Shown here one piece after another: positions 20,726 through 56,780 of a DNA stretch of 61,071 nucleotides. The DNA is from a virus. Taxonomy: Duplodnaviria; Heunggongvirae; Uroviricota; Caudoviricetes. The first letter of the stretch is position 1. Every line of letters begins with the position of its first letter. Location: positions 1-61,071 of the IMG/VR virus record IMGVR_UViG_2778261463_000006; one strand, written 5' to 3'. The notes beneath the pieces are model-generated. The model ran no database searches. It was not told the origin of the DNA and worked only from the letters and a program-made list of their open reading frames with translations. Position numbers and translations under genes: made by a program.

Positions 20726-20742
20726 TTTGCTCTAATAAATTT
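20726..20742 (+). promoter_or_regulatory. C1 operator-like site upstream of kilA (Op53-like)
   Basis: TTTGCTCTAATAAATTT, 16/17 to consensus. Confidence 0.65.
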
Positions 20743-20811
20743 CGTTTTCTAAGTGCAAAGAATCACCATTTCGAGCTGGTGATTGAAGGTTGATGCAAAT
20801 TTGGAGAAAAA

Positions 20812-53677: not shown

Positions 53678-53694
53678 ATTGCTCTAATAATTCC
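53678..53694 (+). promoter_or_regulatory. Degenerate C1 operator-like site
   Basis: ATTGCTCTAATAATTCC, 14/17. Confidence 0.4.
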
Positions 53695-53703
53695 ATATTT
53701 TTA

Positions 53704-53732
53704 AAACGTGATGTACACTCATCACGTTTTTT
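53704..53732 (+). terminator. Rho-independent terminator
   Basis: acgtgatg-tacactc-catcacgt followed by TTTTTT. Confidence 0.65.
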
Positions 53733-53743
53733 ATTAGAGCAAT
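53727..53743 (-). promoter_or_regulatory. C1 operator-like site (minus orientation)
   Basis: Reverse complement ATTGCTCTAATAAAAAA, first 14 of 17 match. Confidence 0.5.
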
Positions 53744-55240: not shown

Positions 55241-55313
55241 TAGTTACAGTGTCACTTTTAATGCTGGTGGAGTGCGTCCCACCAGCATTTTTTTCGTCCA
55301 ATGAGGAGGGCAT

Positions 55314-55820
55314 TTGAGTATTTTCAATAAACACGCACACCAGGAACGTCCGTATATCGTCATAGTCGATATTGATGGAACAATATCGGAGGCAACGGAA
55401 GACAGACTGCATTTGCTTCCGCCACCAGGTAAAGGTGCATTAACAAAGGACTGGAACGAGTTTAATCTCGCCTGTGACACTGATACTCCCATAACTCCAG
55501 TTATTGATATTGTGCGCCAGTTATTTAACGTTTACACGGTCTGGTTTGTAACCGGGCGCTGTGAGATCGCAAGGGATAAAACACGAGCTTGGCTGCGGAA
55601 GTACGTAACAAACGGGGCTGAGCCTTTGCTATCTATGCGCCCTGCCACCGATGACAGAAATGACGGCCCAGCAAAGATTGATCTCCTTAAGAAAATTGGT
55701 CTAAGTAAAATTGCGTTCGCGCTGGAAGATAAGATTGAAGTGGCGCGTGTTTTCAGGAGACACGGCGTGCTTACGTTAATGGTCAGGGAGTATGAAAATG
55801 CGCTTCTTCATCAGCAGTAA
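55314..55820 (+). CDS. pap: HAD-superfamily phosphatase (P1 pap-like)
   Basis: HAD motif I VIVDIDGT near N-terminus; downstream motifs consistent with HAD fold. Confidence 0.6.
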   Translation: MSIFNKHAHQERPYIVIVDIDGTISEATEDRLHLLPPPGKGALTKDWNEFNLACDTDTPITPVIDIVRQLFNVYTVWFVTGRCEIARDKTRAWLRKYVTNGAEPLLSMRPATDDRNDGPAKIDLLKKIGLSKIAFALEDKIEVARVFRRHGVLTLMVREYENALLHQQ

Positions 55821-55836
55821 TTGCTCTAATAAATCT
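55820..55836 (+). promoter_or_regulatory. C1 operator-like site
   Basis: ATTGCTCTAATAAATCT, 16/17. Confidence 0.6.
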
Positions 55837-55918
55837 TGATTTTTAAAGCAGGGAAAGTGAAAATAAAAACATGCCGCAAGGCGCGGCATGTATCTAATCA
55901 ATCACAGGAGCTGAAAAT

Positions 55919-56005
55919 ATGAACACGGCATTCAAAATCATTATGGCCGCGATCTATTTCTGGCTGTTCTCTATCACTTTTGGCGGCATCGTCGCGCATG
56001 GGTAA
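55919..56005 (+). CDS. Small hydrophobic peptide (28 aa), possible small membrane protein/toxin
   Basis: MNTAFKIIMAAIYFWLFSITFGGIVAHG; AGGAG RBS; preceded by hairpin 55870-55891 and C1 operator. Confidence 0.4.
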   Translation: MNTAFKIIMAAIYFWLFSITFGGIVAHG

Positions 56006-56014
56006 GGGGGATGC

Positions 56015-56419
56015 ATGAAAGGCGAAGTGAAAGAGCGCGGCATGATTTTCAACGATGAGATGGTCCGGGCCATCCTCGAAGGAAGGAAAACGCAGACGCG
56101 GCGGATAATGAAAAATCAGCCTGCGGAAGTTGGTCCAGAAGCACCAGTGATGGTTAGAAAAATTGGTGCAGGTTTTCAGTGGTACGGGGCTGATGGTGTA
56201 AGCAGTGTTTTCAATTGCCCCTTTGGTATCGTCGGCGATCGAATTTGGGTTCGTGAAACATGGGCGATATTAGGCAATGAGGATGGTTGCAGTGTGGACT
56301 GGAACGACAACCTTTGTCGTGGCGATGAGAAGAGCGCAGCAAGGATTTATCGGGCCAGTTGTGAGCAAAAGCCTGGTGATTACGGCTTATGGTCGATATG
56401 TGGCCTACAAAAAAGGTAG
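56015..56419 (+). CDS. ASCH/PUA-like domain protein (134 aa)
   Basis: N-terminal motif FNDEMVRAILEGRKTQTRR typical of ASCH-like phage proteins. Confidence 0.55.
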   Translation: MKGEVKERGMIFNDEMVRAILEGRKTQTRRIMKNQPAEVGPEAPVMVRKIGAGFQWYGADGVSSVFNCPFGIVGDRIWVRETWAILGNEDGCSVDWNDNLCRGDEKSAARIYRASCEQKPGDYGLWSICGLQKR

Positions 56420-56780
56420 CTGGAACGGCAACGATGTTTACTGGCTTCAACACGGTGGATTGCCAACCGATGACTTCAGTAAAGCGACCATCTTTTGCGT
56501 CGCCAACAAAAACGAACCAGGAATAGTTTGGTTGCCATTTTCCATTGCTGATGCAGTAAAGCGCCGGACGTTCAATATCAATAACTTTAACCGCAGAACA
56601 ATGGTTCAGGGCGCAGGTTTGGTCATGCCTGACTGGTTGAAAGAGCAGAACAGAAGAAAGAAGTCGCGAAGCGGGAAGGTGCGTTGGAATTGTCCGCATT
56701 GCGGAAAAATCACCTGGCAGTACAGCCCATATGATTTTGAAGGCTGTCGTGATTACAACTGTGAAGGATGGCGAGAATGA
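56277..56780 (+). CDS. ORF overlapping the ASCH gene in another frame; Cys-rich C-terminus (CPHCG...CRDYNCEG); possible frameshift partner
   Basis: 167-aa ORF; real start uncertain. Confidence 0.35.
   Translation: MRMVAVWTGTTTFVVAMRRAQQGFIGPVVSKSLVITAYGRYVAYKKGSWNGNDVYWLQHGGLPTDDFSKATIFCVANKNEPGIVWLPFSIADAVKRRTFNINNFNRRTMVQGAGLVMPDWLKEQNRRKKSRSGKVRWNCPHCGKITWQYSPYDFEGCRDYNCEGWRE

Follow-up and report, generated by a model that had tools for sequence, protein, structure and literature searches.

Organization of the locus

The analyzed window, i.e., the whole DNA stretch of 61,071 nt, belongs to a P1-like phage-plasmid of the genus Punavirus. The phage P1 is a classical model phage and a workhorse of cloning and transduction, and P1-like phage-plasmids are common carriers of resistance genes. 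Positions 55300–56500 of the window showed 96–97% identity with the phage P1. The P1 counterpart of this region contains the pap gene, then the C1 operator OpmgT (former Op88) with two predicted promoters, and then the start of the pmgT gene. The following features were located in this part of the window:

55820–55836, plus strand: C1 repressor operator OpmgT/Op88, ATTGCTCTAATAAATCT, with one mismatch to the 17-bp C1 consensus ATTGCTCTAATAAATTT
55836–55864, plus strand: sigma-70 promoter TTGATT-17 nt-GAAAAT (P1pmgT of the P1 annotation), the top-scoring promoter-like site
55869–55891, plus strand: G+C stem-loop ACAUGCCGC-AAGGC-GCGGCAUGU, 9 bp with a 5-nt loop
55896–55910, plus strand: conserved unstructured spacer AATCAATCA, then the Shine-Dalgarno sequence AGGAG (55906–55910), assigned on the basis of invariance and the centroid fold
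55919–56005, plus strand: 28-codon gene of a predicted single-pass membrane peptide, MNTAFKIIMAAIYFWLFSITFGGIVAHG, assigned on the basis of conservation, coding signature and a helix model
56003–56017, plus strand: TAA stop, Shine-Dalgarno sequence of the next gene (GGGGGA) and the next ATG (56015), a putative translational-coupling junction at which the downstream modules diverge

The original prediction had placed a C1 operator just upstream of a small hydrophobic ORF, and this was borne out: the sequence at 55820–55836 matches the C1 consensus at 16 of 17 positions. It is homologous to OpmgT in the genome of P1 (AF234172) and to Op(hea) in that of P7. Nine C1-operator-like sites with no more than three mismatches were found in the window, while 0.26 were expected by chance. 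The −35 hexamer TTGATT begins at 55836 and so overlaps the last base of the operator. The unit of the 28-codon gene can be assigned to the C1 immunity regulon on these grounds, namely a 17-bp asymmetric operator overlapping a sigma-70 promoter.

The promoter score was 9.8, which is the best value on either strand between 55780 and 56120; scores of 9 or higher occur approximately 0.6 times per kb per strand. The P1 annotation predicts a promoter at the same place. Judging by the promoter geometry, transcription would start at A55871.

The ORF itself begins with the ATG at 55919, has 28 codons and is closed by the TAA at 56003–56005, in line with the hydrophobic 28-codon frame proposed originally. 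The strong ribosome-binding site that had been ascribed to it is also present, namely AGGAG with an 8-nt spacer to the ATG. The pattern AGGAG-N5-9-ATG occurs 19 times in the window vs. 7.8 expected. In centroid folds of the predicted 5′ region, both the Shine-Dalgarno sequence and the start codon were predicted to be unpaired. Note that 28-codon ORFs are commonplace by chance and dozens of them are listed nearby. It is because of the comparative evidence given below, and not of the mere presence of a 28-codon frame, that this ORF was taken as non-random.

The operator and the promoter were known already, and the small ORF is what is new with respect to the P1 and P7 references. In both reference records, the leader of approximately 180 nt between the operator and pmgT carries no annotation at all, and elsewhere the ORF is annotated sporadically, as a hypothetical or ‘membrane’ protein, and then mostly from what is probably the wrong start. 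No discussion of it was found in the literature accessible to the search.

Conservation and coding signature

The related loci numbered 84, namely five phage records (L001–L005) and IMG/VR loci found through Pap. The ORF was intact (ATG, 28 codons and stop) in 82 of these 84 P1-like loci; in the two exceptions, L059 and L065, foreign sequence starts after approximately codon 20. Six synonymous and nine non-synonymous segregating changes were found in the ORF within the P1 clade, giving a pN/pS ratio of 0.42, compared with 1.06 and 1.14 in the other two frames and 0.21 in pap. All the non-synonymous variants were rare, and the sole common polymorphism was synonymous (Ala26, GCG/GCA). Several indels were found in the leader and none in the ORF. 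With six vs. nine changes, these data are suggestive, being too few to exclude neutrality. The synonymous diversity in the first 63 nt of the ORF was oddly low (pi 0.0027 vs. 0.045 in pap), which could be due either to an extra constraint at the nucleotide level or to recent common ancestry.

Following a weak tblastn match (58% identity, E = 0.6), we reached pCFSAN058588 (L089), a Salmonella plasmid. It is a divergent P1-like element without pap, and its PmgS protein is 69% identical to that of the window. Two sister clades of P1-like plasmids were found altogether, with PmgS proteins 68–75% identical and the same layout retained. Their loci (Salmonella plasmids such as L089, and the contig L100) lack pap, and the layout starts right after pmgS. 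In L089, the operator ATTGCTCTAATAAATAT stands at the corresponding place and is followed by TTGATT, AAGAAT, the hairpin AGGCCAC-N9-GTGGCCT, the spacer TCAATCAATCA, GGAGC and ATG. The ORF that begins there contains 46 codons and encodes MHTVFKLAMAAFYIWIFTIVFTGIAKATPVNASEVGVRTIYCDLGE (its beginning is MHTVFKLAMAAFYIWIFTIVFTGIAKA). A third form, P0025, was obtained in an exhaustive profile search over 1.84 billion protein representatives; it comprises 48 residues, MNTAFKLAMAAFYFWIFCIAFNGLVKAAPT... (MNTAFKLAMAAFYFWIFCIAFNGLVKA...), and is encoded on the contig L100 in the same layout. The sister clades share the operator form ATTGCTCTAATAAATAT and an identical −35 hexamer, TTGATT, and have AAGAAT as the −10 hexamer. 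No variation in AATCAATCA and GGAGC was found across the three clades. Beyond the shared hydrophobic core, the sister peptides add a polar tail of about 18–22 residues, and the P1 form does without it.

Over the 26 alignable codons, the three clade pairs share 14, 17 and 18 residues. Many of the residues that are identical between clades are encoded by different codons, and the core DNA has diverged by 37–39%. The between-clade pN/pS ratios in the ORF frame (Nei–Gojobori, 26 codons) were 0.33, 0.26 and 0.26, with binomial P values for the synonymous excess of 0.004, 0.0015 and 0.003. In the control frames, the ratios were 0.77–1.59, i.e., the coding signature was confined to the ORF frame. The same comparison for pmgS gave a pN of 0.20 and a pS of 0.79. 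Within the Salmonella clade, one non-synonymous vs. approximately four synonymous changes were found in the hydrophobic core, and the polar tail varied freely. Because the differences between clades fall preferentially on synonymous sites, and in the ORF frame only, we conclude from these alignments that the ORF truly codes for a protein and is subject to purifying selection, with the hydrophobic helix as the selected part.

The stop codon is lost, or a junction lies inside the ORF, in L059, L065, P0020, P0026 and P0027, which indicates that the gene is dispensable at least sometimes.

Relics of the ORF, 84 bp in length, were also observed in approximately 280 IncF plasmids, where IS1 has cut within codons 3–4 and the remainder adjoins a convergent type I hsdR gene. 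These IS1-cut copies have neither a start codon nor a promoter and were rejected as independent functional evidence.

Choice of the start codon

A longer version of the gene product, 44 residues in length, is annotated in several records, for example in SJ46 (‘membrane protein’), in phi456 (Orf75) and as WP_029399105, and its start is the ATG at 55871, inside the hairpin. Several observations led us to reject this version. The extension is closed by a TAA in the window (55895–55897) and by a TAA at codon 3 in the haplotypes L080–L088, and a GG insertion or a 4-nt deletion shifts its frame in others. In addition, the sister clades have no in-frame counterpart of it. The GenBank/RefSeq annotations of 44 residues therefore probably use the wrong start codon, and the frame that is conserved in the alignments is the 28-codon one led by the Shine-Dalgarno sequence.

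Stem-loop at the predicted 5′ end

The original prediction had also reported a GC hairpin. The hairpin is present, although its start was placed at 55870, one base off the actual position of 55869. Its folding energy was −15.3 kcal/mol (z = −3.8 vs. shuffles). When folding was started from 55871, a 7-bp stem persisted that begins at nucleotide 1. The hairpin of the sister clades has a different sequence (AGGCCAC...GUGGCCU), is located at the same distance from the −10 hexamer and likewise begins at the seventh base after it. In all three clades, this seventh base is a purine and is the first paired base of the stem. Thus, as in the case of the ompA-type leaders, it is the structure and the position of the hairpin, rather than its sequence, that are conserved across clades.

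Substitutions in the P1-clade stem were found at 55870, 55877 and 55884. All three are C-to-T changes, which keep G-U pairs in the plus-strand RNA and would produce A-C mismatches in the minus-strand RNA. One further stem change, C-to-A, disrupts a pair in the RNA of both strands. The interpretation that fits the hairpin best is a putative stem-loop at the 5′ end of the mRNA and not a separate regulatory element. It is known that 5′-terminal stem-loops protect mRNAs from 5′-end-dependent decay; the hairpin in the 5′ UTR of ompA, for example, blocks the 5′-end-dependent access of RNase E and RppH.

Hairpins soon after C1 operators recur within the window, and the motif GCCGC-N1-4-AGGCGCGGC occurs in it twice, with no occurrences expected by chance.

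Predicted properties of the peptide

The product is a peptide of 28 residues that is predicted to form one transmembrane helix. Its GRAVY value is 1.30, and the summed Hessa insertion energy of residues 7–25 is −0.9 kcal/mol (−1.1 kcal/mol for the homolog). The AlphaFold2 model of the 46-residue homolog P0022 contains a helix at residues 2–27, with a pLDDT of 84–91 over the first 20 residues and low confidence in the tail. These values agree with the single hydrophobic helix that was proposed from the sequence originally. With a ribosome-binding site, selection at the protein level and a predicted helix of membrane-spanning length, the product falls within the class of small single-pass membrane proteins of no more than 50 residues. 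The lone lysine at position 6, near the N-terminus, suggests an N-in, C-out topology.

Searches of Pfam, NCBIfam, PADLOC and PDB gave no match for the 28-, 44- or 46-residue forms, and the sole PHROG match was not significant (E = 0.16). As for distant homologs, the profile search of 1.84 billion representatives returned only the family itself, and word-based searches with the 44- and 46-residue forms found family members only. A PmgS-anchored scan of species-representative genomes revealed only two loci, both of close relatives. All the family members found are located in P1-like elements of Escherichia, Salmonella, Klebsiella, Shigella and Citrobacter. The peptide thus appears from these searches to found a small and taxonomically narrow family without detectable relatives.

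The conserved aromatic and small residues are Y13, W15, F17, F21, A10, A11 and G23. A conserved helical face, which would have hinted at the binding of a partner, was not significant in the permutation analysis (P = 0.19). A pattern of conservation at every second residue (P = 0.014) was set aside, as there are too few independent sequences to interpret it.

The full module was found in 564 of 5,426 complete E. coli genomes and in approximately 590 PLSDB plasmids.

Junction with the accessory region

The stop codon of the ORF is separated from the next start codon by 9 nt in the window and in P1 and by 4 nt in the plasmids of the Salmonella clade; the two codons overlap by 1 nt (TGATG) in L100. 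The Shine-Dalgarno sequence of the next gene is located at or inside the 3′ end of the ORF in all three clades. This placement, together with the tight stop/start junction, makes translational coupling plausible.

The content downstream of the junction varies. A PmgT-type gene follows in most of the P1-clade loci, and a convergent type I hsdR gene was found in approximately 21 of the 84; in the sister clades, a gene of a Ren-like winged-helix protein is located there. P1-like plasmids were described as having a hypervariable region that extends between pmgT and humD, or between pap and lxr, under the names of region 8 (PMC9603915) and RD-5 (PMC6906374). The small ORF is the last conserved element to the left of it. 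In the approximately 21 of 84 loci where only the convergent hsdR follows, the ORF is nevertheless intact. The retention of the ORF with no co-oriented gene downstream indicates that the peptide matters by itself and not only as a coupling device.

At least six different right-hand sequences join the conserved block at exactly one place, namely the TA dinucleotide of the stop codon, after ...CATGGGTA. Three of these junctions delete the stop and lengthen the peptide. Selection preserving the ORF is not enough to explain a junction fixed at a single base.

Proposed function and alternative explanations

All these characteristics allow us to assume that the ORF is, quite probably, a genuine gene lacking in the P1 and P7 reference annotations and that, as the first cistron, it heads the OpmgT/Op88 early operon, which C1 represses in P1-like phage-plasmids. 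In a lysogen, C1 bound to the operator overlapping the −35 hexamer would keep the unit silent. Upon induction or infection, the promoter TTGATT-17-GAAAAT would fire, and the transcript would begin at approximately 55871, so that its first bases would form the G+C stem-loop with no free 5′ tail. This stem-loop should shield the mRNA from 5′-end-dependent decay. Ribosomes could then load on the open AGGAG and synthesize the 28-residue peptide, essentially one transmembrane helix in the N-in/C-out orientation. They would stop within the ribosome-binding site of the next gene, which may favor coupled translation of the accessory gene that follows. Since the unit is expected to be silent in the lysogen and expressed once C1 is inactivated, the peptide would be an early lytic function. 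It would act within the inner membrane during lytic growth, because it is the helix that is conserved and a soluble domain is lacking.

The genes pmgT–pmgV were non-essential in CRISPRi and other screens and are dispensable for plaque formation (PMC10695390; these data cover pmgT–pmgV). For this reason, the function of the peptide is probably an accessory one.

As to the mode of action, our preference, a tentative one, is that the peptide binds and modulates a membrane protein of the host or the phage. AcrZ, MgtS, MgrB, KdpF, CydX and YohP of enterobacteria are small proteins that cross the inner membrane once and exert their action by binding to larger membrane proteins.

We favor such modulation slightly over non-specific damage to the membrane, which is somewhat unlikely; the sequence features are compatible with both. 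According to this second explanation, the peptide would be a toxin, like type I toxins or holins, that depolarizes or permeabilizes the inner membrane without a specific partner and serves lytic host shut-off or timing. A very hydrophobic single helix of 28 residues without a soluble domain could well behave in this way, and tight repression by C1 in the lysogen is what would be expected of a harmful product. Moreover, the size and composition of the peptide are within the range of the small toxins TisB, Ibs, ShoB and DinQ. However, the peptide shows no sequence relation to any toxin family and has no charged or polar residues to line a pore. In addition, the conserved residues Y13, W15, F17, F21, A10, A11 and G23 fit specific packing equally well.

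It has little probability that the ORF is only a cis-acting leader, in which translation alone would matter (for coupling, for preventing Rho termination or for keeping the leader unfolded) and the peptide would have no function. The geometry of the junction speaks for such a role, as the stop precedes the next start by 9 or 4 nt or overlaps it by 1 nt, and the next Shine-Dalgarno sequence is placed at or inside the 3′ end of the ORF. Nevertheless, purifying selection at the amino acid level was found on the hydrophobic core in all three clade pairs. In the Salmonella clade, the core has one non-synonymous vs. approximately four synonymous changes next to a freely varying tail, and in the hsd-type loci the ORF is intact without a co-oriented gene. 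Coupling may therefore be an additional role besides the function of the peptide.

The 46- and 48-residue forms contain an N-terminal lysine, a hydrophobic stretch and then AKA or VKA, an AXA-like motif, before the tail; the P1 form ends just past AHG, and the tails differ between close relatives. Such an arrangement could be that of a cleavable signal peptide, in which case a short variable peptide of about 19–22 residues would be exported in the sister clades and the P1 form would be a remnant without cargo. Signal peptides, however, are usually shorter, rich in Leu and Ala and less conserved than their cargo. The hydrophobic stretch in question has approximately 19 residues, is rich in aromatic residues and is by far the most conserved part, and the tail-less form is kept by the P1 clade in hundreds of genomes. 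We consider export of this kind very unlikely.

The original prediction had likened the peptide to small membrane toxins or membrane-targeting regulators and had proposed a search for an antisense RNA. In the sense of a type I toxin–antitoxin system, the toxin would be encoded by the ORF, and the antitoxin would be an antisense RNA with its end at the hairpin. Several features of the minus strand speak for this: TTTTATTTT comes after the hairpin, which is scored there as an intrinsic terminator, the region 55855–56030 folds better than shuffles (z = −3.0), and a weak GcvB-like Rfam match was obtained (20.7 bits vs. a gathering score of 42). Against this, the best promoter candidate on the minus strand, inside or beyond the ORF, scored only 5.7–6.1, while scores of 6 or higher occur by chance about 4 times per kb per strand, and it is not conserved in the sister clades. 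The minus-strand T-run corresponds to a plus-strand A-run, the 5–6 bases between the −10 hexamer and the stem (the discriminator). The sister clades have GTTTTC or GATTAA at this position and hence no minus-strand T-run after the hairpin. After the three C-to-T stem substitutions, pairing is retained in the plus-strand RNA alone, the ribosome-binding site is predicted to be accessible and not sequestered, and the promoter of the supposed toxin is controlled by a repressor and not constitutive. Thus, the search at the sequence level revealed no credible minus-strand promoter between 55780 and 56120 and no Rfam family at threshold, and the role of the hairpin as an antisense-RNA terminator was rejected on the basis of the promoter scan, the Rfam search and, above all, the lack of the T-run in the sister clades. 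A toxin–antitoxin pair is extremely unlikely here, and silencing of the gene would be due to the prophage repressor and not to an RNA antitoxin.

Finally, a chance ORF or decaying relic in a conserved non-coding leader, with conservation due to an RNA or DNA function only, could account for the very low nucleotide diversity in the first 63 nt, synonymous sites included, and for the lack of annotation in the P1 and P7 reference records, but it can hardly be true given that the clades, at 37–39% core DNA divergence, differ preferentially at synonymous sites of the ORF frame only and that all three have retained the start codon, the Shine-Dalgarno sequence and the open frame.

Relation to the accessory genes and significance

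Besides the preferred explanation, namely a C1-controlled peptide that modulates a membrane protein, a wider reading of the locus was considered and found clearly unlikely. In this reading, the operator, the 5′ hairpin and the small ORF would form a fixed ‘expression head’ for the main accessory region, the TA of the stop codon would be a hot spot of recombination or deletion and the peptide would be a companion of the accessory genes. If this were true, any new cargo joined at the stop TA would come under C1 control and translational coupling. The peptide could then be, for example, a factor that acts on membrane-based effectors of exclusion or abortive infection. Among the cargo observed are pmgT-type genes, a type I restriction system, genes for Ren-like exclusion, and Ead/Ea22, DUF551 and humD–phd–doc modules.

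The small ORF would add one more early function to P1, namely a repressor-controlled membrane peptide that is missing from the reference annotation. It also shows precisely where the most variable accessory region begins on its left side, and such a marker would be useful for the comparison of P1-like plasmids and for engineering cargo under C1 control.

Comparison with known systems

Like the other C1-controlled early units of P1, such as Op86 (pmgR–pmgS), Op72 (ban) and Op53 (kilA–repL), the OpmgT unit has a 17-bp asymmetric operator overlapping a sigma-70 promoter, and in several of these units there is also a hairpin shortly downstream of the operator. The OpmgT unit differs from them in that it heads the hypervariable pap–lxr region and its first cistron was missed in the reference annotation.

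The 5′ hairpin is similar to stabilizers of the ompA type, as a stable stem-loop starts at or within 1–2 nt of the +1 position predicted from promoter geometry and its structure and position are conserved over its sequence across clades. In contrast to ompA, the stem is shorter and is followed by a short leader of approximately 27 nt.

The type I toxins (Hok/Gef, TisB, Ibs, Ldr, ShoB, DinQ and ZorO) resemble the P1 peptide in being short hydrophobic single-helix peptides of 19–50 residues, encoded by mobile elements or chromosomes. Unlike their genes, the P1-like locus has no detectable antisense RNA gene, and conservation does not extend to its terminator-like feature. Its ribosome-binding site is predicted to be accessible, its promoter is under the control of a protein repressor, and the ORF, which has no match to a toxin family, opens a polycistronic operon.

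A resemblance in form only was noted between the 46- and 48-residue sister peptides and the AimP pre-peptides of the arbitrium system, which are likewise short, phage-encoded and composed of an N-terminal hydrophobic segment and a variable C-terminal tail. However, no AimR-type receptor gene is present and the hosts are Gram-negative. In addition, it is the hydrophobic segment and not the tail that is conserved, and the P1 form has no tail.

With AcrZ, MgtS, MgrB, KdpF, CydX and YohP, the P1 peptide shares a length of no more than 50 residues, a structure of essentially one transmembrane helix, conservation mainly within this helix and a gene with a canonical ribosome-binding site that standard annotation missed. 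These proteins have no sequence relationship to the P1 peptide, which, unlike them, is encoded by a phage-plasmid, controlled by a prophage repressor and predicted to be expressed only in the lytic cycle.

Conserved block and its right-hand junctions

At least six different right-hand sequences were found to join the conserved block (C1 operator OpmgT/Op88, promoter, hairpin and small ORF) at one exact point, directly after ...CATGGGTA.

Features of the small-ORF region in the window
55260–55289: strong terminator-like hairpin, 11 bp, with a T-run, located after the pmgS stop codon and ahead of the pap start
55871–55918: extension of the 44-residue version, upstream of the 28-codon ORF
55919–56005, plus strand: small ORF, 28 codons, predicted single-pass membrane peptide
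56003–56004: shared junction, TA of the small-ORF stop codon (phage record L005; related loci L048, L101, L102 and L103)
56277–56780: overlapping ORF, 167 codons, in a frame other than that of the 134-codon gene

Right-hand sequences at the junction
pmgT type
hsdR type
deletion reaching the pmgT 3' end
module of L101, in which an Ead/Ea22 gene comes after a gene of unknown function
humD-phd-doc module
fusion with a DUF551 gene

In three of the at least six junction types the stop codon is lost, and the small-ORF peptide becomes longer by 9–37 residues. Rather than the product of selection alone, the TA of the stop codon appears to be a hot spot for recombination or deletion.

An 84 bp relic of the small ORF, extending from codon 3 to just beyond the stop (window 55926–56009), was found on IncF plasmids (L006–L008; about 280 PLSDB records). 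Since it abuts an IS1 end and lies alongside a convergent type I hsdR gene, this indicates IS1-mediated capture by F-type plasmids, which took up both the hsd module and the P1 sequence flanking it.

Diversity and start of the small ORF

Among close P1 relatives, the nucleotide diversity of the first 63 nt of the small ORF (55919–55981) was 0.0027 versus 0.045 in pap, i.e., approximately 16-fold lower, synonymous sites included. Either a further constraint at the nucleotide level or recent sharing of this segment could be the reason.

Public records contain a 44-residue version (SJ46 J46_0098, phi456 Orf75 and WP_029399105) starting at an ATG within the hairpin. This start is probably mis-called, because in many haplotypes, that of the window among them, stops or frameshifts break the extension, and the sister clades lack it.

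Hairpins after C1 operators

In the window, each of four C1 operators is followed within approximately 10–70 nt by a stable hairpin.

C1 operators with hairpins
20726–20790
39454–39541
53678–53743
55820–55891

The motif GCCGC-N1-4-AGGCGCGGC occurs in the window at 39525 and 55873, with no occurrence expected by chance; the copy at 39525 adjoins the bivalent operator next to dmt/dam.

Neighbouring genes

The pap gene is wholly missing from the diverged P1-like plasmids of the sister clades (L089, L091, L092 and L095–L100), so that the operator and small-ORF block directly follows pmgS. Given the terminator-like hairpin after pmgS in the window, pap there is probably a separate insert lying between the pmgS terminator and Op88. 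In the sister clades the small ORF is followed by a gene for a Ren-like winged-helix protein (105 residues, phrog_142) and then by nin/ea-type accessory genes, namely Dam methylase, Ead/Ea22 and DUF968. In the window, the gene that follows (56015–56780 region) has 134 codons versus 309 for P1 PmgT, and homology to P1 stops near 56398; together with the overlapping ORF, these features point to a pmgT-type gene that is mosaic or frameshifted.
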